Source: Escherichia phage 4MG
Sequence record: NC_022968.1
DNA: 64,000 nucleotides
Direction: 5' to 3' (one strand)
Under the pieces are notes generated by a model. The model was given only the letters and a program-made list of their open reading frames with translations, made no database searches and was not told the DNA's origin. The stretch's first letter is position 1; each line of letters opens with the position of its first letter. Both the position numbers and the translations under genes were made by a program. Shown piece after piece: positions 41,833-56,337 of the stretch.

Positions 41833-41885
41833 TGATTTCCTCTCAATAAAAAAGCCAGGTTCCCGAAAAGGAACCCGGCTTGAGA

Positions 41886-42128
41886 TTAACCTCTTCTACC
41901 ACGGCGCGGCTTGCTAGCGGCTTGAGCAGCTTTTGCTTTACTTTCTTCCTCTCTCTCGTGGACATCGTTGACAAACTCTTCCACATCGAGAAACTCATTC
42001 AGCCTGAGCAGATAGGCCATATCCGCATGTTCAAGGGACATATAAGATTCCCCTTTGAAACTTTTCAGAGCACGACACCACAAGTAATCGAACCAAGTCA
42101 GTGAGCTATTTTTCTTTGCATACTCCAT
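41886..42128 (-). CDS. hypothetical protein, possible second tail-chaperone ORF
   Basis: 80 aa ORF between chaperone and tape measure; basic C-terminus. Confidence 0.3.
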   Translation of the reverse strand: MEYAKKNSSLTWFDYLWCRALKSFKGESYMSLEHADMAYLLRLNEFLDVEEFVNDVHEREEESKAKAAQAASKPRRGRRG

Positions 42129-42163
42129 AGCCCTCAGGACGACTTTCGAAATTTTGGACGGTG

Positions 42164-42637
42164 TTACTCCGCTGCCACTTCCGTCGCCTGATCCACCGTA
42201 TTCACTTGATGGGTCTGTCCCAGGCGTCCCAGAAGTCCCTGAAGGTCTGCGAAACCGTCTTTCGTGAAAAAACAGCCGTAGTTGATCTCCAGAACTTTAG
42301 CAACAAGCTTAATGAGGTCTAACATTTTATCTTGGAACAGAGCGTCAATATCTACTTTACCCGCCATACCATCAACGGATACATCCTCAAGAATCAATGC
42401 GAAAAGTTTTTCGATATCATCTTGCTCCATCTGTTCAAAGAGGTATAGAATAGCAGTTGGGAGAGCGTCAGAAAGGTTCTGGCCTCCAGTCATCATGGAA
42501 CCAGAGATGGTTGCCATAGGGACTGCTACATAACGACCGATCTTCGGAAGGTTTTTCATAACCTTGGAAGGAGACCAGTGTGTGATAACAAAGTTGTGAC
42601 CTGCGAGGTCGATGTCAGTTGTTGGTCTGATATTCAT
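42164..42637 (-). CDS. putative tail assembly chaperone
   Basis: 157 aa between tube and tape measure genes (position-based). Confidence 0.4.
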   Translation of the reverse strand: MNIRPTTDIDLAGHNFVITHWSPSKVMKNLPKIGRYVAVPMATISGSMMTGGQNLSDALPTAILYLFEQMEQDDIEKLFALILEDVSVDGMAGKVDIDALFQDKMLDLIKLVAKVLEINYGCFFTKDGFADLQGLLGRLGQTHQVNTVDQATEVAAE

Positions 42638-42712
42638 GTACGCTCCTGCGTCTTTGAGATTGAGAGATCCTTACGTGTTTGAAAGGCCACGTCCATGTGG
42701 CACACGAAACAC

Positions 42713-43186
42713 TTATACGATACCTGCAAGACCAGCAAGACCGAAGCCTGCGGAAGACAGAGTATCTGGGCTTAACCAAGCGTCGAGGATACCGATTTCC
42801 CAGTCCATCTGGCCCACTTCTGTACCGTAGGTCAGGTCTGGTTGTTTCTGAATCCAACCGATAGTGCTGAGACCCATACCCTGAGAACCTTCAAGAAGGA
42901 CAGGGAAGAAGATCAGCCCGGTGATAGAAGCTTGTTTCTGCCAGTTTGCGAAGTTTCCGTTCCAAGAAGCGGTGTTCTGGAGGGAAACCGTCATAACACC
43001 AGATTGGTTACGGGATAGTGCGGCAGACAGTTCACCATCAACCCCCATGTGGGGGATGATGTTATCTTCGTTACGAGCAACGACGATCTTGGTATCTGCG
43101 GCAAATCCGGTAACACGCTGAGTCATCAGGTATAGCTTGACTTTTTTAGGGTCGTAAGCATACGGTGTTAGGATAGCTGTATTCAT
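42713..43186 (-). CDS. tail tube protein
   Basis: 157 aa immediately downstream of sheath gene. Confidence 0.55.
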   Translation of the reverse strand: MNTAILTPYAYDPKKVKLYLMTQRVTGFAADTKIVVARNEDNIIPHMGVDGELSAALSRNQSGVMTVSLQNTASWNGNFANWQKQASITGLIFFPVLLEGSQGMGLSTIGWIQKQPDLTYGTEVGQMDWEIGILDAWLSPDTLSSAGFGLAGLAGIV

Positions 43187-43189
43187 TTA

Positions 43190-44602
43190 TTACACTCCTG
43201 CTGTTACAGTCTGACCGTTTCCGGAACTAGACCCTGTTTTATCTAACAGAACGGTCATGCGGATCTTAACGAAGTGCAGTGGTGTGTTGTACACAAGTTC
43301 CACTTTCACGTTGTTCAGAGTACGAGCAGCCAGATCGTTAGTCGGGATGTTTGCACGAAGCGGGATAGTGATCACCGGATCGTAGAACACTTTGTTAACG
43401 TCATCGTATCCGGTCAGGATAGAACCGTTAGCGATACCTACGTTGATAGGGTTGTTCAGCATCACAGACTTCAGGTTTGGCAGATCGTCATCACTCATCT
43501 TCATGGACAGGCCCTGATTAGAACGACGAGACATGTAGCCGAACACGCTTTCTTCTGTGCGGAATTTCAGCCAGTGACCGAAACGAACAACGTCAACATA
43601 GTTGCCGGAAGCACATTTGCCTTCGTAGAAGGAACCAACACCGTTAATCATACGGTAGAAGTTCAGGTTCTGACCCCAAATGGTCATACGGTCTGTTGCG
43701 CTCAGAACTGGAGCGATAACACCTTCCATAGTCTTCAGGTGAATAGAGTCACCATAAGAAGGATCGTTGGAAGCCATTGCACCGATGATACCACCTTCGG
43801 AGAACGCGCTATCCGCAAGCGGATCGTACATACCGATAGAGGTGTCGTACTGAAGAGCTTTCAGTTGGTTTGCAATAGAGTTGCTACCCGCTGTTTTAAC
43901 CAGTTCGTCAGCAGTTGCATAGACGTGCAGCTTGTAGTTAGCAGCAGCGAATGATGCAGCAGCCAGAATGGATGCGTTAGTGTGAGATTCGGTGCTCAGG
44001 AAGTACCAGTTCTCAGTTGCAGTCAGGATCTGAGGAAGAACAGAGGATACAGTTTCACTTGAAGTGTTGCTGATCACCATGTTTCCGCTGTCGCGCCCGA
44101 CGCTGAATGCACCACCGTTCTTAGGAACGATTGTTACCACACCTGCGCTTGCAGTTGCAGTCAAAACAGTGGTCAGGGTTGCATCACCGTTCAGAGATGC
44201 TGCCAGAGCGGTAGCAATACTGGTTGGTGTAGATGCACCAGTTACCGCCACGATAACGCTGGTCTGATATGCACCAGAAACTACGTTCAGGGCTACAGGA
44301 GCGTCAGGGTCGGTATTGACCTGTCCGGTGAAGTCCACGATGGTGTTAGTAAAGCCTTGACGACCAACCATCAGGTACTGAGGACGGAATGTTCCAGCGA
44401 ATGCTTTTGTTGCGAAGACATAAGCTGGGGAACCTGGAGCGAATCCATCATCTACTAGCTGATCGAGTTCGGTATAAGCGCGAAAACGTTCAGGGAAGAC
44501 GTTGTGGATAGCCAGGAACAGCGGGGTTTCAAACCCTTTGGTGTCGATTGGTTGAGTACCAAGCGCGACTGTTACGTCAACCACCTTATCATTATAAGCC
44601 AT
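43190..44602 (-). CDS. contractile tail sheath protein
   Basis: 470 aa; size and position ahead of tube gene; AAGAGGAAA SD. Confidence 0.6.
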   Translation of the reverse strand: MAYNDKVVDVTVALGTQPIDTKGFETPLFLAIHNVFPERFRAYTELDQLVDDGFAPGSPAYVFATKAFAGTFRPQYLMVGRQGFTNTIVDFTGQVNTDPDAPVALNVVSGAYQTSVIVAVTGASTPTSIATALAASLNGDATLTTVLTATASAGVVTIVPKNGGAFSVGRDSGNMVISNTSSETVSSVLPQILTATENWYFLSTESHTNASILAAASFAAANYKLHVYATADELVKTAGSNSIANQLKALQYDTSIGMYDPLADSAFSEGGIIGAMASNDPSYGDSIHLKTMEGVIAPVLSATDRMTIWGQNLNFYRMINGVGSFYEGKCASGNYVDVVRFGHWLKFRTEESVFGYMSRRSNQGLSMKMSDDDLPNLKSVMLNNPINVGIANGSILTGYDDVNKVFYDPVITIPLRANIPTNDLAARTLNNVKVELVYNTPLHFVKIRMTVLLDKTGSSSGNGQTVTAGV

Positions 44603-44666
44603 CGGTTTCCTCTTCTTTATTTCTGTACATACAGTTATTGACCAGCACCTCGTTGTGCTGTATTAT

Positions 44667-44682
44667 GAGGGCCGAAGCCCTC
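44667..44682 (-). other. UUCG tetraloop hairpin upstream of sheath gene
   Basis: Minus-strand GAGGGC-UUCG-GCCCTC; second inverted repeat CAGCAC..GTGCTG at 44643..44660. Confidence 0.4.
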
Positions 44683-44732
44683 TTATACGATCACTAATAA
44701 GCGAGAGCTTATCAATAACCGAGTGGTTTTCT

Positions 44733-45263
44733 TTAATCTTGAGCCGGGAAGTGATAAACGATTTGAGCGTTGATCTTCTCCAGGTCCTCGAAAGATCCGG
44801 TATCTGTTTCGATGAAGCATACGTTGAACGTAATCAGCACCACAGCACGGTTTTCGAACTTCTGCACGTTCAATGGGACTCTCAAACGAGAAATCGTCGA
44901 AGAGGATGAGTATGCAAAAGGAGAGTTGGTTGGGAAATACTTATCGTAAATGAACGGTAAGTTCATCGCCTGTAGCACCCTGCTTAAAGCATTGGGGGCC
45001 TTGCCACGGTAAGCTGTCAGAGTATACACAACCTCATAGTTGTGAACTGTCGTAGCGTTTCCGTTTACATCAAGCCCCTCGTCAGATTGCCAGTCAAGCT
45101 GGTCAACTGCTGTTAGGTCTACAAGAATGAATTCACCATCAATTTTGGGGATCTCATCCTCTCCTGCCAGAACCACCTTTCGGCCTGTGGTTTCTTTACA
45201 AAAAGAACCAACCGTTTTGGTAAGAGCATCAAAGATCTCATCGGAATTGGTGAATCCTGCCAT
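44733..45263 (-). CDS. tail completion/neck-region protein (by position)
   Basis: 176 aa ORF. Confidence 0.35.
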   Translation of the reverse strand: MAGFTNSDEIFDALTKTVGSFCKETTGRKVVLAGEDEIPKIDGEFILVDLTAVDQLDWQSDEGLDVNGNATTVHNYEVVYTLTAYRGKAPNALSRVLQAMNLPFIYDKYFPTNSPFAYSSSSTISRLRVPLNVQKFENRAVVLITFNVCFIETDTGSFEDLEKINAQIVYHFPAQD

Positions 45264-45700
45264 TAAATTCCTCCGTTTGTTCCTTCAGGAACAGACACCA
45301 CGTAAGCGCGGAAACGTGCAACACCTGTGGTCTGATATGCATCAGACTTGATCACGGTGAACCACACCATTTCCCCACGGGAATTCATCAGCTTAATTTG
45401 GTCAGCAAGTTCATTAGAACCTTCCACCGGACCGCGTAGCATCACTGAAGAGTACACGGTGAAGGAGTCATATTGTCTCCCACCTTCCTGCATCAGTTGA
45501 GATGTGTAATCTCGTGCGGCCTTACCAGTAAGCGGCTGAACAACGCATTCCAGGACATCAAACTCTTCATAGTCGATTTGGATGCCTTGGTTTTCAAATG
45601 GGTTGTCCATATCCACTTTGGCGTATTCTCTGTGTCGTCCAACAAATGTTGGTCGCGGGATCAGTTTGTTTCTACCAATAAGTCTGTAACCTTGAGCCAT
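45263..45700 (-). CDS. head-tail joining region protein (by position)
   Basis: 145 aa ORF. Confidence 0.35.
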   Translation of the reverse strand: MAQGYRLIGRNKLIPRPTFVGRHREYAKVDMDNPFENQGIQIDYEEFDVLECVVQPLTGKAARDYTSQLMQEGGRQYDSFTVYSSVMLRGPVEGSNELADQIKLMNSRGEMVWFTVIKSDAYQTTGVARFRAYVVSVPEGTNGGI

Positions 45701-46182
45701 TATACCCCCGAATCCTTACCTTTTGAAATTCTGAATGTTGTGGACTCTTTGAGGTCTCCATAATGGAACATCGCCTCTTTGAATCCCTTGACATCAGCCC
45801 AGGCATCAGATACTGTGTTGTGAGGGAAAAGTCCGGTGTCGATCACGAATTGGATTTTTCTCGCCCCGGCTTTACCAATCCTGTTGAGGATCGGGGTCAG
45901 GTTCTGACCACCCATTGCGAGATATGCAAACAGATCTTTTTGTAGTTTGTTCAGTTCCTTGTTAAAGGCAACTGCGGCACTGGTCATGAATGTACGAGCA
46001 GGTAGCCCGTTCCAGCCCTCTTGGTGAATCGCTGCGAGAGTCGCAGTATTAAGACCTGAGTAGTGAGGGTCATCGTAGTAACCGTATGATACTTGACGAT
46101 AATCAAGCACTTTGGTTGCCTTATAAAAGTTCTCTAACTGACTCAGATCTTGCTTACTTGTGAATTTTGGTCTCATAGCCAC
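45700..46182 (-). CDS. head-tail joining region protein (by position)
   Basis: 160 aa ORF. Confidence 0.35.
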   Translation of the reverse strand: MAMRPKFTSKQDLSQLENFYKATKVLDYRQVSYGYYDDPHYSGLNTATLAAIHQEGWNGLPARTFMTSAAVAFNKELNKLQKDLFAYLAMGGQNLTPILNRIGKAGARKIQFVIDTGLFPHNTVSDAWADVKGFKEAMFHYGDLKESTTFRISKGKDSGV

Positions 46183-46241
46183 ATCCGTTTAGGTATTTTA
46201 CCACATTATCTTAGCAAAATCAACGATCAAGCGAAGGATAA

Positions 46242-46760
46242 TTAACGAGGCCAGCGGTGAGGGTATCTACGGGGGATTCCCGGTACACCAGTCTGGGGTA
46301 CAATGCCTGCAACATCGAAAGGACCTCTTGAGTTTGGATTCCTTTTAACGCGAAGATATTCATCTTGACGAACACCGCCAACAATGACTAAACTTGATAC
46401 CGCGCTGAGGCAATCATTCACATAATCCGGGTTAGCTTGCAGCCAGTCTAGGAAGTCTTTCCAGTTCTGGTATGTAGATCCACCCTTGACCTGGATAGTC
46501 TCGTCACCGATCTTTTCCAGACGTTCTGTGATAGATGCTTCACCAGAGTTAACTTCTTGCAGGATTAACCAACGAACGACATCCACCATCGTGTTATAGA
46601 TAACACGCCACATGTCGCAAGGGGTTGCATCAGGATTAGGCCACCCGGCCTTTACCTTTTCAATTGCAAGGAATGCCAGAATTGTTTCATCAGGCAAGAC
46701 CTCTGGAGGAATTGACCCAAGGAGCAGTCGAATGTAATCAATAATTTCTTGGTCTGTCAT
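46242..46760 (-). CDS. hypothetical virion-module protein
   Basis: 172 aa ORF. Confidence 0.4.
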   Translation of the reverse strand: MTDQEIIDYIRLLLGSIPPEVLPDETILAFLAIEKVKAGWPNPDATPCDMWRVIYNTMVDVVRWLILQEVNSGEASITERLEKIGDETIQVKGGSTYQNWKDFLDWLQANPDYVNDCLSAVSSLVIVGGVRQDEYLRVKRNPNSRGPFDVAGIVPQTGVPGIPRRYPHRWPR

Positions 46761-46834
46761 TTTCGCTCCTGTTGGATTGCTCTTCTATTAATCAATATCT
46801 TATCATAAAAGATTCTATTTGTCATTAAAAAGAC

Positions 46835-46862
46835 TTGACAAGGCGTTATCACATGGTATATT
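46835..46862 (+). promoter_or_regulatory. sigma70-like promoter TTGACA-16-TATATT for the plus-strand moron
   Basis: TTGACA 46835..46840, TATATT 46857..46862, about 30 nt upstream of TAGGAGA SD. Confidence 0.55.
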
Positions 46863-46894
46863 AACCTTAATTAACGAACATAGGAGAACATTTT

Positions 46895-47299
46895 ATGAAG
46901 AATACTAAGGGAATTGTTTCACTGGCTGTCGGTGCTGTTGTTGCGGCTTTGGTGACGACCACCTACATCATGAAGCATCCAAATCTGGACAACATGCAAG
47001 CCATCGAATCAAGCTGGCTGTCGAAGGAAGAGAAAACAGCAAGTATCCATCGACTTGTGCGTTTGTCTTGCGACCAATCATTTCGTAAGGCATTTAAGCC
47101 TGGGGTGTCTGTAGTGCAGACAGGGGAGATGGATGAGATCACAGAGCAAGCAGAAGGCTATCAATATCTCAACGATGTGGCAATCCTCTATGGAACGAAA
47201 GGTTACAAAGGGGCATACATCTGCACATACTATAAAGATGGTAAAGAGCCTATGGTTAATGTGAATATGGAAGCGGGTGTTAAACCACTCCTAAAATAA
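46895..47299 (+). CDS. membrane-anchored/secreted moron protein
   Basis: 134 aa; N-terminal hydrophobic anchor; sole plus-strand gene inside minus-strand structural block; own promoter and terminator. Confidence 0.55.
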   Translation: MKNTKGIVSLAVGAVVAALVTTTYIMKHPNLDNMQAIESSWLSKEEKTASIHRLVRLSCDQSFRKAFKPGVSVVQTGEMDEITEQAEGYQYLNDVAILYGTKGYKGAYICTYYKDGKEPMVNVNMEAGVKPLLK

Positions 47300-47301
47300 A
47301 A

Positions 47302-47315
47302 GGCCCCGAAGGGCC
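47302..47315. terminator. bidirectional terminator hairpin
   Basis: GGCCC-CGAA-GGGCC with T-runs on both strands, between convergent genes. Confidence 0.6.
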
Positions 47316-47321
47316 TTATGA

Positions 47322-47621
47322 TTACGCCATAATACCAGCGGCTTTTAGTTTTGCCAGCAGAGCGTTAAAGTCAGTAACCAGACCAGCAGCATCAGTTGCT
47401 GTACTGTTTGCCTGAGTTGCAGCCATTTTAACGCCACCAACTACGCTTGTAGTCGCAGCCACAGGTGCGAAAGTGGTTGGTTTGCCTGTGATATCAGCCC
47501 AAGCTACAGAACCACCGCCACCAGATCCTGAGATAATATCAGCAACGCTGATTGATTGTCCAGTACCAAGGTCGATGAGTTTAGTTGCGTAAAGCAGACC
47601 AGCTACACCAGAAGTTGCCAT
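47322..47621 (-). CDS. small fiber-associated protein
   Basis: 99 aa; Gly-rich; ADITGKPTTFAP motif of the kind seen in tail fiber proteins (recalled, not verified). Confidence 0.4.
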   Translation of the reverse strand: MATSGVAGLLYATKLIDLGTGQSISVADIISGSGGGGSVAWADITGKPTTFAPVAATTSVVGGVKMAATQANSTATDAAGLVTDFNALLAKLKAAGIMA

Positions 47622-47634
47622 ATTTTATTTCTCC

Positions 47635-48279
47635 TTATAGGAATGAGTCGGGTAATGCAGGGATTGTTGCGATTGTGGAAGCTTGTTCCACTTGGTCAAG
47701 GTAAGACCAATAAGACTTCATCATTTCATACTGAGCACGAGAAACCTGTGTTACAAGGTCTTTCATTTCTGCATGGGTGAAGTCAGATTTGTATCCATCA
47801 AGGAATCGGAATGGGTAGACTTCTGAGGACTGATCCCCGTCTGCTTCCAGAACCGACTTAATGGAGAGAAGAGTCGCAAGGTCGAAGCTTTTAACTCTAA
47901 CTTTGTACTCAACATTGTCAACCGGATAAGGAATCCCGATATCAAGATCGCGAGATAGAATATTTTGAGCCGCAGCCTTGTAACTCTGCTTGGCAGATTC
48001 AAGGTTTGCTGCAATTTCTTCTGGCGTAAAATCTCTTGAGTTCCACGTCTGTTCCCATTGCTGAGTTTGGTCGTTGAAATGTGGAGCACCCTCAGTTACC
48101 ACATCACCAGTCGGAGGTGTGACAGGGATTACCGGAAAGTAGCCAAACTCAACAAGGTTCTCAGAATAAATCCAAGTACCGATGCTCACGTTAGGATTGT
48201 CTGCTCTGAAGTCAGCCAAGTAAACCGGATATCTCCCATCAGAAGACCTGATCATGGGTGTGTATGAATATACTACCAT
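47635..48279 (-). CDS. hypothetical protein downstream of collagen-like fiber
   Basis: 214 aa ORF. Confidence 0.4.
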   Translation of the reverse strand: MVVYSYTPMIRSSDGRYPVYLADFRADNPNVSIGTWIYSENLVEFGYFPVIPVTPPTGDVVTEGAPHFNDQTQQWEQTWNSRDFTPEEIAANLESAKQSYKAAAQNILSRDLDIGIPYPVDNVEYKVRVKSFDLATLLSIKSVLEADGDQSSEVYPFRFLDGYKSDFTHAEMKDLVTQVSRAQYEMMKSYWSYLDQVEQASTIATIPALPDSFL

Positions 48280-48295
48280 TTACTCTCCTTGAGAA

Positions 48296-48309
48296 GGGGC
48301 CGAAGCCCC
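48296..48309 (-). other. intercistronic UUCG tetraloop hairpin
   Basis: Minus-strand GGGGC-UUCG-GCCCC between fiber stop and next SD. Confidence 0.4.
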
Positions 48310-48313
48310 TTTA

Positions 48314-50941
48314 TTAGTTGACAGTAAGAGAGGTTGTACCTGTCAGGTTTGTACCATCCCAAAGGATCGTAACAACTGTGCGGGTAGTTCCCAAAGTAAC
48401 CGCCGTACCGTTTGACCATGCTAAGTTTCCAGGCCACGTCAGTGACGCACCAGAACCTGTGAACACGATAACGATTGTCATTGCCCTGTTTGCAGGCAAA
48501 TTAGTAAAGCTCATGGTTTTGTTCGCTGTACCATCAACCTTGAAGACCTGAGACACGCTAACATCCATAGCTCCAGTTGAAGAAGTTACCAGAAGGTCGT
48601 AACGATCCAGTTTCTTCCATGCACTGTTTACACGAACGTAATAGCCGCTGTCAGCAGGGGCTTCAAGAACTGGCACATCTACCCAACCAGAACTTGTACG
48701 CGCCTGTGGCGTTGTTGAGGAGGTATCGTAGACGTTACCACCACCCATGTATCCCAGAGAAGCCCATACCGTAGCAGAAGTCTTCTGGAAATACTCAAGG
48801 GTGCTTTTGTTGATGAAGTAGTCACCAACACGTCCATCAGCAGGCCCTGGGTTACGTGGGAAGTTCAACCAAAGCGTACCTTGGTCACCTTTCACACCCT
48901 GGATACCCTGAGTACCTTGTGGACCCTGAGGTCCAGTTGGTCCAGCAGGCCCCGTAGGTCCTACGAATCCACCAACGTTGATCCAGTCATTGTCTGTTAC
49001 ACTCCAAACCCACAGGTCTGTTCCGATGATCCAGCCGTCACCTTCAGTACCTGTTGCTGGTAGATCAGCTTCAGATGCTTTGGTTCCTAGAGGTTTAATA
49101 CCAGCGCCCTGGTCTCCTTTAGGTCCTTGTGGGCCTGTTGGTCCGGTAGGACCTGCATCACCCTTCGGACCCTGTGGTCCATCAACACCTTGGAGTCCTT
49201 GGATACCCTGGTCTCCCTGAGGTCCTCGCATTACACCCAAGTTGGCCCAGTCAGAACCTGTAAAGGCAAAGCCCTCCCCGGTATCTACTGTGGTGTAATA
49301 ATCCCCATGAGATGCCCCAACCGGAAGGTCTGCTTCTGTTGGTACTGTTCCAAGAGGGTTAAGCGGAACACCCATTGGACCCTCAGGCCCTTGAGCACCA
49401 TCAGCACCAGCAGGCCCTGTATCTCCGGTGTCACCTTTAGGACCCTGAGGTCCATCAACACCTTGTGGACCCTGTGGGCCTGTAGGCCCGGTATCACCAG
49501 TGTCACCTTTATCGCCCTTCGGACCTACATATGGACCAACGTTGATCCACTGTGCATCAGATTGACTCCAGACATACAGGTTTGGTACAATGATCCAAGC
49601 ATCACCAGATGTTCCTGTCGCAGGAAGTTCAGATGTGGCACCTTTCGTACCGAGAACGCGAGCACTGTAACCTGTTTCACCACGGTCGCCCTTCGGACCT
49701 ACTGGTCCTTGAGGTCCAACTGGTCCGGTAAGGCCCGTGTCGCCCTTATCTCCTTTCGGACCTACGGGTCCCTGGATACCCTGTGCGCCGTCATTTCCCT
49801 GAGGACCCTGAGGTCCTGTTGGTCCGGTTGGACCTTGATCGCCTTTCTGTCCCTGTGGACCCTGAGGACCAACGTCACCATCGTCGCCTTTTGGCCCCTG
49901 AACAGGACCGATATCTTCCCATGCACCGTCAGAAGTCCACACCCAAACATGATTATCTGTTTGAACAACCCAAGCATCAGCAACGGCGTTGCCGAAAGCA
50001 GGAAGATCTGCGGTGGTGGCTTTTGTACCTTTCAGTTTAACAATGGCGGCATCGTTACCTTTATCGCCCTTCGGACCCTGAGGTCCTTGTGCGCCAGTAA
50101 GCCCTTGGATACCTTGAACACCCTGATCGCCTTTCTCACCACGATCACCTTTGTCACCTTTAGGTCCTTGTGGCCCTGTGGCACCAGTCGCACCCTGAGG
50201 CCCTGTTGGACCTACCTGACCAACTGGTTGCCAACCGTCAGCAGCGCCAGTCCATACCCACATCTGTTCTTGGACGATATAAGTATCACCCTCAGTGTTT
50301 CCTTCTGTAGGCAGGAATGCTGTGTCTGTGAAAGAGCCTTTGATTACAAGACCGATACCGTCCTGCCCTTGTGGACCTGCGAAGTCTCCAAGGTCAACCC
50401 ATTGCTGGTTTACAACAGTCCAGTAGTGTGTTCCAATAACGTATGTGTCGCCTTCCTGCATGGTTGATGCAGGTGGGAGTTGGGAAGGGTCTCCCAGAAT
50501 ACCTTGGATGTAAATACCAACACCCGGTTCACCTTGCGGCCCCTGGTCACCCTTATCCCCCTTTTCACCAGGTGGGACATACAGCCCCTCTTCACCTGGA
50601 TCAGTAACCTCAACAAGGGTGTTTCCATCCTTACTTGAGATCGGAATAACGATTTGAGGAGGAGCAACATACAGCTTTCCACCCGCCAATACAAGCAGGT
50701 TGTCACTGATTGTGCTGACACCAACGGAAAGACCGTCAGCACCAGCCACAAGAGCATTTCCGGAAGCAGGATCTACAATAACAGTTGCCTTCAGTGGGGT
50801 AGTGGATGTACCATTACCGAGAAGTGTGACGGTGGTCGTATCTTCCGTATGGAATTGACCATCATCAACAAAGGTCTCACCTGCACCGCCCTCAGGAAGG
50901 ATCAGTTCAGCGTTGACGACCTTATCATTGTAATCTGCCAT
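48314..50941 (-). CDS. collagen-like (Gly-X-Y repeat) fiber protein
   Basis: 875 aa; multiple uninterrupted GXY blocks (e.g. [28 protein letters not shown]); AAGGGG SD. Confidence 0.65.
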
Positions 50942-50950
50942 TTTTACCCC

Positions 50951-51484
50951 TTATTTTGCAGGCTCTAGTTCTTCAAGAGCAGCCTTGAAGTCAGCCATCA
51001 TGTTTTCGAAAGATTTGTTTTTCGCAAGGGTGATACCTTTGGTTGCAGCAAGATCAGCAAGTTTATCTTTGCTTCCTTTCTTATCAGCTTCATCATTAAG
51101 GGCTTCTGCCTGAGCCAGAATAGCTTCATAGCTTGCAGATTTAACCTCAACAACCTCAGTCTTGACATCTTCAACCTTAGGCGCTACAGTCGCTTCTACT
51201 GCCTTACCGCGACGGTTAGGGTTTGGAAGAGCACTGTTGAAAAATACGATGTATGTACCCATACGCAGTGTGGAATGTTCAGCATCAACATCCAGTCCGG
51301 AGATCTCTGCAAGAGCTTTGAAGAAGTCAACGGAGTTGCGGAAAGCTTTGTGCTCTTTTCCAACACAGAATCCATTCAGAGGAAGACGTGCTGATACCCC
51401 AACATTCAGGTCAGGAGCATAAGTGCCGAAGAATTTGAACAGTTCTACTTTGTTCGGGAAAATACGATAGTTTTGATTAGCCAT
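50951..51484 (-). CDS. hypothetical head-module protein
   Basis: ATG 51484 after GGAG; track ORF extends to GTG 51517. Confidence 0.4.
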   Translation of the reverse strand: MANQNYRIFPNKVELFKFFGTYAPDLNVGVSARLPLNGFCVGKEHKAFRNSVDFFKALAEISGLDVDAEHSTLRMGTYIVFFNSALPNPNRRGKAVEATVAPKVEDVKTEVVEVKSASYEAILAQAEALNDEADKKGSKDKLADLAATKGITLAKNKSFENMMADFKAALEELEPAK

Positions 51485-51617
51485 AAAATCTCCATTGGTT
51501 ACCTTAGTAAAAACCACTTGACACCAGTCATGAAGTGGCTATTATTAAGGTGACGAAAATAAAAAAGGGAGAGGTGAATAATCACCTCCCCCTCTTAGAG
51601 GTAGCAGTTACGCTATC

Positions 51618-52631
51618 TTATGCGAAAGTACCAGTAGAGCGAACAACCAGTTCCGGACGGGTGTTAACAGTCAGGAAGGAAGTTTCGGACTCAACCTTTT
51701 CTTCGCGCAGGTATGCAGAAGATTTGTACCACAGGTACAGTTCTTGTGCAGGAGTGTTCGCGTCACGAACGTCATCTGCTGGTGCATAGTGAATCTGGAA
51801 CATGTCGTCGATTCCTTGCGGCAGAATGTAAGCTTCACCATCAGGGATGTAGTTGGAGATATCCTCGATGTAAGTTACGTTCTTGTGAACAAACATACGG
51901 TTGTTGGCGTTTTCCTGCCCTTGACCCAGACGACGACGAAGCGGCTCTTGAGTAGAAGAGTAGTATTGGTAAGCGTTCATTACCAGCGGATGAGCGATCA
52001 GCGCTGAGAACCACTTACGAGAAGCCAGAACTACGATGTTGTAGTTGTTACCGTTGTCACCAGCATTGTCGATGATGTACGCACGAGCGTCAGCTTCGAT
52101 GATGTCGGTTGGGTCGGTTGCTACATCGGTGAAGTCGATGTTAGCTGTGTGCTGAGTAACACCCCACTCGGTGAAGTAGTTGTACTGAGCAGTTGGGTCC
52201 TGTGGTGCCCAGGATTTACCCATGATCGCCTGAAGCATTGCTTTTTCTTTCAGTTGTTCATGAGAGATGCGGATACGACGAACCACACGAGCAACAACAT
52301 CTTCTACAGTCTTCGGAGCGTCAGCAGTAAAATACTTACGGAAGTTCTGTACGTCTGCCGCTGTGATCTGACGATCCAGTGGGAAGAACGGAATGTTGAA
52401 GTTTCTCAGTTGGGCCTTTTCAGTACCAACGTAGTTACGTTCACCCTGACGACGACGAGCCGGGAAGTCAGTTACAACTTCATCAACACGTTCGATCTGA
52501 GCGATAGTCGTTACACCGTGGTACGCTGTGAACAGGTCCATATTGGTGATCAGACGGTACTGACGTGGTACGATTTCCAGAGTCGCGCCGAGATCGACGA
52601 TCTGGAAGTCATTAGTGCGTACTACTGCCAT
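51618..52631 (-). CDS. major capsid protein (lambda gpE-like by size and gene order)
   Basis: 337 aa; follows a small decoration-like gene and a scaffold-like gene in portal-protease-scaffold-D-E order. Confidence 0.55.
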   Translation of the reverse strand: MAVVRTNDFQIVDLGATLEIVPRQYRLITNMDLFTAYHGVTTIAQIERVDEVVTDFPARRRQGERNYVGTEKAQLRNFNIPFFPLDRQITAADVQNFRKYFTADAPKTVEDVVARVVRRIRISHEQLKEKAMLQAIMGKSWAPQDPTAQYNYFTEWGVTQHTANIDFTDVATDPTDIIEADARAYIIDNAGDNGNNYNIVVLASRKWFSALIAHPLVMNAYQYYSSTQEPLRRRLGQGQENANNRMFVHKNVTYIEDISNYIPDGEAYILPQGIDDMFQIHYAPADDVRDANTPAQELYLWYKSSAYLREEKVESETSFLTVNTRPELVVRSTGTFA

Positions 52632-52652
52632 TGTTATTCTCCTTGGTGTAGA

Positions 52653-53072
52653 TTAGATAGACGTTACTGGGATCTCAACGGAACCGTCGTAATATTTATC
52701 AGTGATCTTCAGACCTTTGGCCTCAAGAGCAGCGATAGCGGCAGCGTTGATTGCAGTAGTACCGTCAGCGAAAAACAGTTTGGATTTGTTCAGGGTCAGA
52801 CCACGAACAGCCACGACGAAGTTGTACTTCTGTCCTACCACGAAAGGACGTGGAGCAGAGTATGCAGGAACCAGGTCACGGTCAGTGATCACACCAAAAG
52901 CGCTTGCAGCGTCAGCAGTTGCGGCAAGAGTACCGTCTGCCTTAACGATCATACCAGCCTTCAGGCCTGCGGCGTAGGTGATTTCCATTTCTAGGAAGCT
53001 GTAGCCCTGGTCAGAAGAGTCAACTTTACCCAGAACGATGTCAGAGTAGTACCCTTGGATTGGATTAGCCAT
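52653..53072 (-). CDS. head decoration-like protein
   Basis: 139 aa directly upstream of capsid gene. Confidence 0.45.
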   Translation of the reverse strand: MANPIQGYYSDIVLGKVDSSDQGYSFLEMEITYAAGLKAGMIVKADGTLAATADAASAFGVITDRDLVPAYSAPRPFVVGQKYNFVVAVRGLTLNKSKLFFADGTTAINAAAIAALEAKGLKITDKYYDGSVEIPVTSI

Positions 53073-53092
53073 TTATTTAAATCTCCTCGATA

Positions 53093-54094
53093 TTAGGCGT
53101 TTTGTGCAGCTTCACGAGCGCGAGCTTTCGCTTTCTCGATGTTAGCTTTCAGAATGTCTTCAGCAGACTTGTTGATGTCATCAACAGGCGCTTCAGCACC
53201 AGAGCCGTGTTCAGCAGTGCTGAATTCTTTCTTCACGGTTTCAACTTCTGTTTCCAGTTCGCTAATACGAGCCTGAGCTTTTTCCAGAAGAGCTACTACC
53301 GGAGCGTTAGCTTTTTCGATGATGAAGTCAGCCAGAGCGGAATGGTCTGCATCAGTAGCAAAGGTGAAACCTTTAGCTTTGGTCAGAGCAGCATTCTTTT
53401 CTACTTCCACAGCAGCTTTGATGATTTCATCAGCTTGTGCGGCTTTAGCTTTGGCATCTTCCAGTTGCTTAACCAGGTCAAGATATTCTTGAGACTTGGT
53501 TACATCAGTAACATTATCGGACACTGAGGTCTCCTTATTTTCTTTGGATGTATCAATTACAGGGTCAGTACCTGCTTCTTTGACGACCCCAGTTACCTGG
53601 AGATCTTTGGACTCACCTTCTGTGAAGGTCAGACCTAATTCGCTTACACCTTTTTCAAACAGTTGCTGAAGTTTCAGCAGTTCGTACTGTTTAACAAGGT
53701 CAATTTCTTCACCACTGTTTGCAGCCTTGGCGATGGAGATGGACTCCATACGTTCTTCAAGCCATTCCTGATGTTGTGCATTCCACGCTTGGACCCATTC
53801 ATCGTCAGGATTTTCAGCAGCTTCGTTTTCAAGTTCTGTTTCAAAGCCCAGTAGCTTAGTAAGCAGTTCCGCGTCATCACTCCACATATAGAAGAATCTA
53901 CGCAGGAATTCTTCAAAGCTCATAGAGACAGTAACTTGCTGCAATGCCTTGATAACGTCTTCAGTAATCTGTTCTGGTTTCAGGTCAGACTTCATCAGAA
54001 GTGACACTGGTCTCAGGTTTGCAGAAAAACCTTGACTCTCGTGGCAGAGTGCGATACCCTTCTCTTTAATGGCTTTGGCTTTAGCAATTGTCAT
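53093..54094 (-). CDS. scaffolding-like protein
   Basis: 333 aa; acidic, Ala/Glu/Lys-rich helical regions; ATGA overlap with upstream gene. Confidence 0.45.
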   Translation of the reverse strand: MTIAKAKAIKEKGIALCHESQGFSANLRPVSLLMKSDLKPEQITEDVIKALQQVTVSMSFEEFLRRFFYMWSDDAELLTKLLGFETELENEAAENPDDEWVQAWNAQHQEWLEERMESISIAKAANSGEEIDLVKQYELLKLQQLFEKGVSELGLTFTEGESKDLQVTGVVKEAGTDPVIDTSKENKETSVSDNVTDVTKSQEYLDLVKQLEDAKAKAAQADEIIKAAVEVEKNAALTKAKGFTFATDADHSALADFIIEKANAPVVALLEKAQARISELETEVETVKKEFSTAEHGSGAEAPVDDINKSAEDILKANIEKAKARAREAAQNA

Positions 54095-54720
54095 TCGCCA
54101 TCTTCCTCAACATATTCGACACCGAAATCAACGTTGGTGATCTCACCTGTTTCTTTGTCGATAGAACCGGAGCACTGAATGCTTAGGCCACCAACAACAT
54201 TGGACTTTTTGAGGTCCCAGAGAACAGGGTCGTTATATTTAACTTTAGCTACCCAGGTGCCAGCTTTAATTACTTGCTCGGTCCCGATAACCACCACATC
54301 AAATTCTTCCTGAATCCAAGTCTTCTCGATTGTGAAAGAGTCAGTCTCAATCATGTGGAAGAGGTTCTCTTTAACAATGCCAGCTTCGTGTGCCTTATCA
54401 AAAGACTGCTTCGCTTTGGCGATTGTATCAGCAGACATCCATTCGCCGTGAGCATCTTTGGCATCTGGTTCATAAATGACCTCGTAAGAAATCATTTGTT
54501 CTCCAGCATCCTTTTGGACACTTACAACAGATGTTGACTTGTTGATTTCAGTTTTAACGTTCACGTTTAGAACGTCTTTGGAAGCCTTCTCGATAGCGGC
54601 TTCAGGAGATTGGCCTGAAGCAATCAGGCCATTTGCAATATTCAGTACCTTGCTCTTCTGAACGAGAGACAGATCAGATACTGATGCAGGAAGGTCAGCA
54701 ATACTTGTGTATTTCATCAT
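54091..54720 (-). CDS. putative prohead protease or head morphogenesis protein
   Basis: 209 aa between portal and scaffold (position only). Confidence 0.3.
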   Translation of the reverse strand: MMKYTSIADLPASVSDLSLVQKSKVLNIANGLIASGQSPEAAIEKASKDVLNVNVKTEINKSTSVVSVQKDAGEQMISYEVIYEPDAKDAHGEWMSADTIAKAKQSFDKAHEAGIVKENLFHMIETDSFTIEKTWIQEEFDVVVIGTEQVIKAGTWVAKVKYNDPVLWDLKKSNVVGGLSIQCSGSIDKETGEITNVDFGVEYVEEDGE

Positions 54721-54786
54721 TTTCCCCGTTGATAGTTATTTTAACACCGTTCATTTTCTTTTGCAAGCTATTTCAGTAAGTTGAAA

Positions 54787-56337
54787 TTAATTATCCATAT
54801 TGGATACGGAATTGTCTCTTGTTGAGGAGATTTTTCCAGTTCCATTACCGCTAGAGCCTGCTGCCATACCATCACCGGAGCGACTGACATCCTGACCAAG
54901 GAGTTTCAGAAGTTCGTCGGTAGACATGTCCTCAGGAATCTCCTCATCAAAGCCACCAACTTCAAGGATCTTGTTGATAACAGTAGGAGTTTTAGGTAAG
55001 TACCCAACAGCACCAATACGCTGAACAAACTTGGAGAACCCTTCCATATCCACTTCTTGAATCAGTCCCGGCTTCAGTTTAGGCATGTCTTCGTCGGAAA
55101 GACGAATGTCATTTAGTGCCAGAAGCTGCGGGATCAGGTTCTTGTTGAACGCTTCAACAATGATGTCGATATCGCGTTGAACGAAGTGTCCGTGAATAGA
55201 TTGCTTGGATTCTGACAGGTTGTAGGAACCCTGACCATCGTTACCAAGGTTGATGAAACCAGCACCAAAACGGTCAAGGATCGCCTTTTTACGTGAGTTC
55301 ACCAGTTCTTGTGTGCTATACTGCTTACCAGCACCGTCAATGCCCTTCAGAGCCATCTTGTACTGTTCACCACCCTGAGCGTTCATATCTGAAGGTAGGA
55401 TGAAGTAAGCTTGCTCACCTGCGTGTGCGTTTGCAGCGTCAGCCATTAATCCTTGAACCATATCGGCTTCTGGGGATTTAGGGTCCATTGCTGCTTTGTT
55501 CAGAATCTGAGAAGGGATCTTAAGTTCAATGATACCACCAAGGTCTTTAGATGCCCCGATAGTCTCAAGGTTTTCAATCAAGATCTTCTCACGGAAGGCA
55601 CGATAACATCCAACCAAAGGAGATACACCCGCCGGGTTGGATTCTGTACCACCCAGACTCATCACCATCAATTTGTTGATAGGGATAAATACTTCATCAG
55701 CAGAGGATGTCAGGTTGGTAACCAGAGACATTGCAGAAGAAATCTGGGTCAATCCGTTCTGGAAGTTAGCAAAAGCCAGTTGGCTTTGGTAAATCCCTTT
55801 CAGTGTACGACCATCATCGTCGAAAACCCAAGGCTTAGAACGAGACAGGCTTGACTGAGGACGGAAAGCAATCTTATCAATAGTGATGTACCCTGCATAC
55901 TTTGACGGAGCAGATTCAGTACGGTATACTTTCTCAAAGATGGAAAAACCATATTCGTTGAAAGTTGCTGCACTACGAGCAACGTCACGAAGGGTTTGCT
56001 GGTTGGCAAGGTTCTTCAGGGCGTACTCTACAAACTCTGCGGCATCTTTGGAAGCTTGGCTATCACGATTGAACAGGATTTTAAAATCGTTGAATGCTTT
56101 AGTTACGAATACGTATTTCGTATCAAGCGCCGTGGAGACAGTATGATCCTGTTTCATCGCCTCTACGGTAGCCAGGAAGCAAGGCCAGCGTAGCTCTTCT
56201 ACCTTCATCACTTCGGACTCTGCACGAAGCTGGGAGAGAGCACCAGAGCCTAATTCCCCGGTACGGAGGCGGCTAACCGCAAGGTTTTCATTCCCTGCTT
56301 TTACAACCGCCCCTGGTTGTGCAAATCTTGTTGACAC
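54787..56337 (-). CDS. portal protein
   Basis: 516 aa immediately downstream of large terminase. Confidence 0.6.
   Translation of the reverse strand: MSTRFAQPGAVVKAGNENLAVSRLRTGELGSGALSQLRAESEVMKVEELRWPCFLATVEAMKQDHTVSTALDTKYVFVTKAFNDFKILFNRDSQASKDAAEFVEYALKNLANQQTLRDVARSAATFNEYGFSIFEKVYRTESAPSKYAGYITIDKIAFRPQSSLSRSKPWVFDDDGRTLKGIYQSQLAFANFQNGLTQISSAMSLVTNLTSSADEVFIPINKLMVMSLGGTESNPAGVSPLVGCYRAFREKILIENLETIGASKDLGGIIELKIPSQILNKAAMDPKSPEADMVQGLMADAANAHAGEQAYFILPSDMNAQGGEQYKMALKGIDGAGKQYSTQELVNSRKKAILDRFGAGFINLGNDGQGSYNLSESKQSIHGHFVQRDIDIIVEAFNKNLIPQLLALNDIRLSDEDMPKLKPGLIQEVDMEGFSKFVQRIGAVGYLPKTPTVINKILEVGGFDEEIPEDMSTDELLKLLGQDVSRSGDGMAAGSSGNGTGKISSTRDNSVSNMDN

Follow-up and report, generated by a model that had tools for sequence, protein, structure and literature searches.

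The stretch of DNA analysed here, referred to below as the window, comprises 64,000 nucleotides from Escherichia phage 4MG (NC_022968.1; Seunavirus, Vequintavirinae), and the subject of this report is a collagen-like fiber gene that it carries on the minus strand. This gene is the open reading frame (ORF) at 48314..50941, which starts with ATG and encodes 875 amino acids (aa). An exact-sequence look-up showed its product to be identical to YP_008857283.1, the 'tail fiber protein' of 4MG, and the products of the neighboring 99-aa, 214-aa, and sheath genes are likewise exact matches to 4MG proteins. The existence and annotation of the fiber gene are already known, and as a class it is ordinary. 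Possible novelty lies in two interpretations: that its N-terminus mimics an arm of the tail sheath, and that its repeated modules are built-in trimerization nodes. With a probability of roughly 0.55, we propose that the protein is a virion-borne, presumably trimeric, segmented accessory adhesion fiber that is attached to the tail by a sheath-like strand.

An initial annotation made from the letters of the sequence had described a fiber of Gly-X-Y repeats encoded between head and tail genes, in which repeat blocks alternate with non-collagenous segments and are followed by a C-terminal domain. This description is borne out. The gene has the major capsid gene (51618-52631) on one side and genes of the neck and sheath (43190-46760) on the other, and its product contains seven repeat blocks, six interspersed modules of about 45 aa, and a non-collagen C-terminus of 185 aa. 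The parts of the fiber, and the sheath gene with which it is compared below, are as follows.

50894..50941, minus strand: residues 1-16, a strand resembling strand S4 of the sheath, then a Gly-rich linker
50570..50941, minus strand: N-terminal anchor and shaft domain, residues 1-124
48872..50569, minus strand: Gly-X-Y blocks and modules, residues 125-690
Gly-X-Y blocks: residues 125-142, 189-197, 241-297, 349-426, 473-526, 573-614, and 658-690
Six beta modules of about 45 aa: residues 143-188, 198-240, 298-348, 427-472, 527-572, and 615-657
48590..48871, minus strand: residues 691-784, consisting of a seventh, degenerate module (691-733) and then two hairpins (about 735-781)
48317..48589, minus strand: C-terminal beta-sandwich knob, residues 785-875
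43190..44602, minus strand: tail sheath gene (PHROG 205; match to the phiTE sheath, 9cb9, E 1.3e-158)

The seven uninterrupted (G-X-Y)n blocks contain 6, 3, 19, 26, 18, 14, and 11 triplets, a total of 97 that accounts for 291 aa, or 33% of the fiber. The longest run, of 26 triplets, compares with a mean of 3.75 and a maximum of 10 in 20,000 shuffles of the protein. Repeat and motif detection, a check suggested in the initial annotation, was positive with the Pfam Collagen profile (PF01391), which matches over six stretches (E 9.4e-41; 137.8 bits, cut-off 27.2). Proline occupies 43% of the X positions and 2% of the Y positions, which are mostly Gln, Lys, or Thr, and the collagen part holds 17 KGD and two RGE motifs. 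Such a composition is usual for prokaryotic collagens, which are free of hydroxyproline. At 0.286 nm per residue, the collagen parts would amount to about 83 nm. At the DNA level, Tandem Repeats Finder reported only four short 9-bp arrays (scores 33-35), a result that rules out recent tandem duplication of DNA as the origin of the repeats and indicates that the Gly-X-Y repeat is old and maintained at the protein level. Antisense to the collagen region is a 446-aa ORF (49127-50467, plus strand), and several shorter ORFs occur in other frames. The 446-aa ORF is most likely a by-product of periodic Gly-X-Y coding and not a gene, because this periodicity leaves the complementary frame without stop codons.

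The non-collagen segments between the blocks (43-51 aa) all repeat a single module, whose consensus is ..G.......LP..G..GD.Y....G....W.GT.W.N.G. In an AlphaFold2 (AF2) monomer model of residues 615-875, the module is formed by four strands and a short helix, with predicted local distance difference test (pLDDT) values of 82-89, and the collagen segment is left unmodelled (pLDDT 29-46), as expected for a single chain. Judging from its sequence, the fiber is presumably trimeric, with collagen triple helices. The modules and the foldon-like hairpin described below are most likely trimerization and registration nodes that would nucleate the adjacent triple helices, and hinges; this role is suggested by weak similarities and by the known behavior of collagen-foldon fusions. 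The trimerization domain of collagen XV/XVIII (multiplexin) and engineered (GPP)10-foldon are analogous in role only and not in family membership, the match to the multiplexin domain having been obtained from the monomer model with weak scores and without sequence similarity. The segmented build of collagen, beta modules, and foldon-like element is a natural counterpart of engineered collagen-foldon designs, and could be of interest to protein engineers.

Hydroxyproline-free, charged Gly-X-Y repeats with non-collagen flanking domains are likewise found in Scl1/Scl2, Lcl, BclA, and the collagen-like tail-fiber proteins of E. coli prophages. The NCBIfam profiles Lcl, SclA, and SclB match the collagen part at E values of 1e-37 to 1e-44, far below the family cut-offs, but the likeness of these bacterial and prophage proteins to the fiber is limited to the repeats, as their flanking domains differ. 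Small beta modules placed at regular intervals, six or seven of them, are not known from such proteins. Among phages, SPP1 gp12 is described in a review as a short collagen-like trimer that decorates the capsid and binds reversibly at hexamer centers; compared by description, the 875-aa fiber differs greatly from it in size and architecture. The view that collagen-like phage fibers are uncommon did not hold, as 55 PHROG families were matched, most of those with an annotated function being tail fibers, and 238 phage records were matched by tblastn.

The 4MG fiber matches PHROG 3904 (E 6.4e-291), a family that includes PVP-SE1 gene 69, phiTE gp215, and CB7_10. Full-length homologs are encoded by PVP-SE1 (gene 69), SSE121, GAP31, and EC152, by the Certrevirus phages phiTE and CB7, by W70-like coliphages, and by Acinetobacter phage ABPH49 and Serratia phage ChuuTotoro. 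Identity to the Seunavirus members is 79-89% (tblastn), and CB7_10 is 44% identical to the 4MG fiber over the full length (E = 0).

At its N-terminus, the fiber resembles the tail sheath protein of the same phage. The 4MG sheath start MAYNDKVVDVTV resembles the first 12 residues of the fiber, the fiber-like N-terminal strand of the sheath is MAYNDKVVDVTVALG, and the sheath strand aligned to the first 15 fiber residues is MAYNDKVVDVTVAL. This likeness, which had been pointed out in the initial annotation, stands up to statistical comparison: the alignment scores 37, with 11.7 +/- 3.1 for the null (p = 1.5e-5 for a single comparison). The common motif of the fibers of Seunavirus, Certrevirus, Avunavirus, the W70-like phages, ABPH49, and ChuuTotoro is Y-x-DKVV-x-[AV]-x-[VLIP]-x-[VLA]-P, in which Y.DKVV is invariant across six Vequintavirinae lineages, and in all lineages the motif leads into a linker rich in Gly/Ser. 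The corresponding N-termini of other phages are given below.

phiTE / CB7: fiber MAQYEDKVVEVLVTVP, sheath MAEYQDKVVDVEVSLG
W70: fiber MAEYNDKVVEAFVTAP, sheath MAYEDKVVDVEVTLG
ABPH49: fiber MLNEYEDKVVEVIVDVP, sheath MAYNDKPVDVVVQLG
19-1-2: fiber MDYKDKVVNAEVILP, sheath MAYNDKVVDVTVTLG

In phiTE, the fiber strand MAQYEDKVVEVLVTV corresponds to the sheath strand MAEYQDKVVDVEVSL. According to the phiTE cryo-electron microscopy (cryo-EM) paper, residues E3-L15 of the sheath form strand S4 of the 'hinge sheet', a four-stranded element that connects three subunits and turns as the sheath contracts, and the phi92 paper describes the same handshake of N-arm and C-arm in the sheath. The similarity between fiber and sheath starts and stops where S4 does. 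This suggests, from sequence, that the N-terminus of the fiber anchors by beta-strand mimicry of the sheath. The more specific proposal that residues 1-15 mimic the S4 strand of the sheath N-arm, such that the fiber would be inserted in the lattice of the contractile sheath, or at the place where displaced N-arms are held, is tentative and somewhat doubtful. Docking by beta-augmentation at a symmetry-mismatched site would be a good fit for this combination of conserved strand, flexible linker, and trimeric shaft. If true, the mimicry of a sheath arm would represent a mode of fiber attachment not described before in a myovirus and could couple the fiber mechanically to sheath contraction, and the fiber strand may match density in the phiTE map that was left unassigned or was assigned to the sheath.

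The likeness to the sheath might instead be unrelated to docking, being either an old relic of 5'-end capture or a shared signal for the initiation of translation, for processing of the N-terminus, or for a chaperone. This explanation, which we consider unlikely, draws on the sheath itself, for which no vacant S4 acceptor is known to us, and on the lack of covariation: a search for covariation between the N-termini of fiber and sheath found none, both being simply conserved, and the sheaths of ABPH49 and ChuuTotoro have DKPV where their fibers have DKVV. It is opposed by the conservation of the motif, as Y-x-DKVV is the longest invariant block of an N-terminal domain in which the lineages share only 31-55% identity, and by the exact end of the similarity at the end of S4. 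In addition, four of the seven shared codons differ synonymously between fiber and sheath, and the upstream DNA, including the ribosome-binding regions, is unrelated, so that the constraint acts on the protein. The runner-up among 601 candidate N-termini in the window scores 23, compared with 37 for the fiber, and in a six-frame scan the motif occurred N-terminally only in the fiber and the sheath.

The proposed docking by the sheath-like strand is joined by a second resemblance that points to the tail. Residues 3-76 of the fiber match residues 91-168 of the long tail fiber gp015 of phage 7-7-1 (PDB 9RKV; E 1.9e-4), in an alignment that takes in the fiber segment NFNDKLYTARTDLPPG. This long tail fiber is anchored to the baseplate, and the likeness covers its proximal region; this partial similarity is the one link between the 4MG fiber and attachment to baseplate wedge proteins. 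The two proteins differ in that gp015 has 90 extra N-terminal residues, which make up most of its anchor, and in that the rest of gp015 is a beta-helix and jelly-roll without collagen. By tblastn, the N-terminal domain (residues 1-124) of the 4MG fiber was found in 67 phage records, all of them of Vequintavirinae type and, in every context checked, at the post-capsid locus; rV5-like and phi92-like genomes were absent from these 67 records. A protein search with the 124-aa domain returned fragments only.

The initial annotation had singled out purified virions as the place in which the protein should be sought, and a full-length homolog is indeed present there. Tandem mass spectrometry with electrospray ionization (ESI-MS/MS) of purified CB7 virions detected CB7_10 (112 kDa, with a collagen domain) by 39 unique peptides at 46% coverage, evidence that pertains to this homolog and not to 4MG itself. 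The products of the genes CB7_11 and CB7_12 were likewise detected in purified CB7 virions. The only relevant high-resolution atlas for this fiber family is that of phiTE, and a virion protein of 95-135 kDa that is confirmed by mass spectrometry and is found in several Vequintavirinae genera has no place in it. The fiber and its N-terminal domain are not included in the baseplate models of phiTE and phi92, and the phi92, RBPseg, and Goslar papers make no mention of collagen or of this fiber. The phiTE paper reports an unmodelled third fiber near the baseplate, which the long fiber, bending towards the capsid, is thought to contact.

Between the last collagen block and the knob, AF2 predicts hairpins, the second of which (residues 760-781) is foldon-like. 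Its alignment to the T4 foldon scores 44 against 28 +/- 3.8 in shuffles (p about 0.0015). The Pfam profile Fibritin_C has no match in the 4MG fiber segments at E <= 10, and it passes its cut-off (21 bits) at the same positions in two aligned homologs, P0007 (30.7) and P0009 (29.2). T4 fibritin (wac), a trimeric accessory fiber, is likewise encoded just before the neck genes, and its foldon beta-hairpin is near the C-terminus. The shaft of fibritin, however, is a coiled coil, whereas that of the 4MG fiber is made of collagen and beta modules; the foldon-like element of 4MG precedes a knob instead of ending the protein, and the N-terminal domain is unrelated to fibritin. As no alpha-helical coiled-coil shaft was found in the 4MG fiber, whose shaft consists of Gly-X-Y blocks and beta modules, the protein is not a fibritin.

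A fibritin-like location is a separate matter. The fiber could be a neck whisker that is fixed to the connector or to the sheath's head-proximal end and runs down the tail, where it would act as an environmental sensor, as an aid to tail-fiber assembly, or as a fiber of first contact. The gene position resembles that of a whisker, with the adaptor, head-completion, and terminator genes immediately downstream of the fiber gene. T4 wac lies upstream of genes 13-15. The foldon-like hairpin and an estimated length of at least 83 nm, comparable to that of the tail (123 nm in CB7), also fit, and the irregular sheath lattice of the phiTE neck, with first-ring N-arms that are shifted and 'pinned' elsewhere, implies a binding site of the S4 type there. 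Yet no collar, whisker, or unassigned strand is reported for the phiTE connector, which was resolved to about 3.3 A; together with the collagen shaft in place of a coiled coil and the absence of a Fibritin_C match in the 4MG sequence itself, this makes the neck whisker quite improbable.

The knob (residues 785-875) is modelled by AF2 with pLDDT 81-92, and a sequence search of PDB with it returned nothing at E <= 1. It recurs at the end of annotated tail-fiber genes of phi92, phiKZ, EL, and Erwinia and Ralstonia phages. phi92 gp151 was not located in the phi92 maps. Identity of the 4MG knob is 98% to EC152 and 96% to PVP-SE1, close to the values for the capsid protein (98.5% and 95.8%) and for the sheath (97.4% and 92.8%), and this conservation spans the hosts E. 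coli, Enterobacter, Salmonella, and Cronobacter.

Four genes on the minus strand, bounded by terminators, make up the cassette to which the fiber belongs: a 177/188-aa gene, the fiber gene, the 214-aa gene, and the 99-aa gene. The features other than the fiber gene are listed here.

51563..51596, minus strand: intrinsic-terminator-like hairpin right after the capsid gene, with a 15-bp stem and then a T-run; upstream boundary of the cassette
50951..51517, minus strand: first cassette gene, 188 aa from GTG, PHROG 3259
47635..48279, minus strand: 214-aa partner protein (4MG gp066), a candidate tip-bound chaperone or adhesin
47322..47621, minus strand: 99-aa 'head fiber protein' (YP_008857281.1), Pfam Phage_head_fibr PF11133 at E 9.5e-13
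47300..47317, minus strand: intrinsic-terminator-like hairpin right after the 99-aa gene; downstream boundary of the cassette

The order of capsid gene, terminator, small gene, fiber, 214-aa gene, small fiber gene, terminator, and neck genes is conserved in the family. A terminator is annotated at the same post-capsid place in phiTE, and terminators after the position of the 99-aa gene are annotated in PVP-SE1 and phiTE. According to the PVP-SE1 annotation notes, none of the cassette genes is annotated with an rV5 homolog. The fiber gene does not lie within the baseplate/tail-fiber cluster, and in phiTE over 10 kb separate it from the baseplate and fiber genes downstream.

The 214-aa protein appears to be a partner of the knob. 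Homologs occur in 112 phage records, and wherever both sets of coordinates could be compared, the 214-aa gene is directly downstream of the gene that ends in the knob. This adjacency is seen in the Vequintavirinae, in the Erwinia jumbo phages Special G, MadMel, Rebecca, and Deimos-Minion, in PhiEaH1, and in Ralstonia phage RSL2; for EL, it is taken from the PVP-SE1 annotation notes. Further homologs are found in Burkholderia phages, Psa21, Noxifer, and PCH45. The protein is the most variable of the cassette, with identities of 86%, 72%, and 36% to EC152, PVP-SE1, and CB7, respectively. Most of its invariant positions are in the N-terminal half, and the C-terminal half is 23% identical to that of CB7. 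CB7_11, one of the proteins detected by MS/MS in CB7 virions, is its homolog (35% identity). An AF2 model (mean pLDDT 79) gave generic helical-hairpin matches only, for example to Cas4/Cas1 and prefoldin subunits. Its pairing with the knob, its variability, and its presence in CB7 virions suggest, by analogy with proteins of the gp38 and Tfa types, a tip-associated partner that acts as a stay-bound chaperone or as an adhesin.

The 99-aa protein has a C-terminus like that of the phi29 head fiber gp8.5. Its N-terminus MATSGVAGLLYATKLIDLGTGQSI represents a second type of anchor, which is shared with the larger fibers 19-1-2 peg83 and P0009 and is weakly similar to CB7_12/pTE217 (BLASTP E 0.026 over 25 residues). 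From its sequence, this N-terminus suggests a second exchangeable anchor, probably one for capsid hexamers. pTE217 (= CB7_12) is the cassette-position counterpart of the 99-aa protein, and the phiTE authors assigned it to the 'Pagoda' density at the center of capsid hexamers on the basis of its very high abundance in mass spectrometry. The length of the 'head fiber' gene varies, from 84 aa in PVP-SE1 (L001 7050-7304) to 99 aa here and 129 aa in EC152 (L002 6916-7305). About 32 N-terminal residues of the 99-aa protein also head a 416-aa Avunavirus fiber that has its own Tfa gene (L004 7182-8432); the L004 interval 10796-11053 belongs to the same comparison. Furthermore, P0009 (278 aa) is a mosaic of the 99-aa type of anchor with the shaft, foldon, and knob of the big fiber. 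The 875-aa fiber itself has no match to the PF11133 head-fiber profile, and on this basis is not a phi29-type head fiber.

These neighbors raise the alternative of a capsid (head) fiber. On this explanation, the fiber would be a trimer at a capsid site free of Dec and 'Pagoda', most plausibly the 11 pentons, held by three flexible N-terminal tails much as adenovirus fibers are held on the penton base, and it would make first contact with the cell, as proposed for the capsid fibers of 7-7-1 and the capsid spike of Pa223. Co-transcription after the capsid gene, between two terminators, with a phi29-head-fiber-like gene whose phiTE counterpart is assigned to capsid hexamers speaks for it. So do the P0009 mosaic and the resemblance of the knob to the Pa223 spike, although that spike (gp52) is a 295-aa triple beta-helix whose own N-terminal domain binds the 3-fold axes of the capsid. 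A short conserved N-terminal peptide with a Gly-rich linker would suit a symmetry-mismatched capsid site, and the fiber is not among the modelled neck and baseplate proteins of phiTE. The icosahedral capsid map of phiTE, on the other hand, contains nothing beyond the capsid protein, Dec, and Pagoda; the N-terminal strand is a copy of one in the tail sheath and of no capsid element; the N-terminal region resembles a baseplate fiber; and the pair of knob and 214-aa protein is found elsewhere in genes annotated as tail fibers. On balance, a head fiber is rather unlikely.

Several findings count against the attachment to the tail that we propose. In both phiTE and phi92, no S4 slot of the sheath lattice is empty: the tail terminator occupies those at the neck, and sheath arms occupy those at the sheath initiator. 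A phmmer search with the C-terminal 100 aa of the sheath against ORFs of at least 60 aa in the window found only the sheath itself, and hence no extra S4 acceptor; we also know of no vacant one. No experiment places the fiber or a homolog on a given part of the virion, all structure models of the fiber are monomers, and the words 'collagen' and gp215 never occur in the phiTE cryo-EM paper. The cassette is shared with a capsid-decoration gene beside the capsid genes, P0009 places an anchor of the capsid type on the same shaft, foldon, and knob, and the knob resembles a capsid spike. Finally, conservation of the knob on a par with the core virion proteins is unusual, being odd for a receptor-binding tip. 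In favor of the tail are the likeness to S4, the match to 7-7-1 gp015, the occurrence of the knob and 214-aa pair in the tail-fiber loci of jumbo phages and phi92, and the third, unmodelled fiber seen close to the phiTE baseplate. The placement as a head fiber or whisker that was raised in the initial annotation is accordingly not established: the public annotation is that of a tail fiber, and evidence points both ways. Among the possible locations, the tail is favored at somewhat less than even odds, the head follows as a doubtful site, the neck is an unlikely one, and any other site is very unlikely.

Under the proposed tail attachment, a 15-residue N-terminal beta-strand and a flexible Gly-rich linker would tether the short beta-structured shaft (residues 1-124) to the particle, most likely to the tail, at the sheath or the periphery of the baseplate, by beta-strand augmentation in which the N-terminal strand mimics S4. 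The shaft would be continued by the seven collagen triple-helix segments, about 83 nm in all, with the beta modules between them serving as trimerization and registration nodes and as hinges. A foldon-like hairpin would then precede the conserved beta-sandwich knob, and the more variable 214-aa protein is probably either carried by this knob or its folding factor. Such a fiber may widen the capture radius of the virion and provide a reversible first contact with the cell, with host specificity residing more in the 214-aa partner than in the knob. Several members of the Vequintavirinae have been proposed or tested as biocontrol agents.

The number of repeats differs among relatives, a comparison that was also suggested initially. 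Collagen-bearing homologs of 953-1266 aa have 83-135 triplets in 7-11 blocks; for example, there are 97 triplets in seven blocks in 4MG, 94 in eight in PVP-SE1, and 103 in ten in CB7. The central region is the most diverged, with identities of 84% to EC152 and 78% to PVP-SE1, compared with 98% and 88% for the N-terminal domain. In the 90% identity cluster of the 4MG fiber, nine of the 11 members are 875 aa long; the other two have 873 aa and, in the case of a fragment from an 834-bp contig, 211 aa. When positions 40000-56000 were compared with the phage collection, the best match was about 90% over 16 kb, and the fiber gene, at 80-84%, was clearly more diverged than its flanks. In two natural fibers of 321-324 aa, P0002 and P0004 (from Salmonella phage GEC_vB_MG and an ENA contig), only a short Gly-X-Y stretch separates the N-terminal domain from the seventh module, foldon, and knob, and the six modules are missing. 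The long collagen stalk is therefore dispensable for at least some relatives. In addition, the Avunavirus phages 19-1-2 and Av-05 combine the same N-terminal domain with a 470-aa non-collagen distal part. Judged from sequence, such exchange of distal parts on a shared anchor is typical of receptor-binding fibers.

The first gene of the cassette can be read as 188 aa from a GTG, and its homologs all start at MANQNYRIF, which corresponds to the ATG at 51484 and a protein of 177 aa. Its N-terminus matches a PHROG 'major head protein' and its C-terminus a 'minor head protein inhibitor of protease'. In L009, the homolog has the Pfam domain Phage_Inh_N. CB7_9, the homolog in CB7, was not detected by MS/MS in CB7 virions.

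Two further genes were noted near the cassette. Between the adaptor and head-completion genes lies a 160-aa gene (45700-46182, minus strand), whose position (phiTE_219, phi92 gp127) is missing from the connector component lists of both atlases. Its same-position counterpart in CB7, CB7_14, is confirmed by MS/MS, and the product appears to be another virion protein without an assigned location. On the opposite strand, inside the late structural block, a 134-aa ORF with an N-terminal membrane anchor (46895-47299, plus strand) runs towards the terminator region at 47300-47317. In front of it is a near-consensus sigma-70 site (46835-46862, plus strand; TTGACA-16-TATATT with an upstream TG, 11 of 12 matches). 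The 134-aa ORF may be a moron or an exclusion gene, and is conserved in PVP-SE1 (gene 66, 'membrane protein'), in EC152, and in Avunavirus, where it is annotated as adenosine deaminase.

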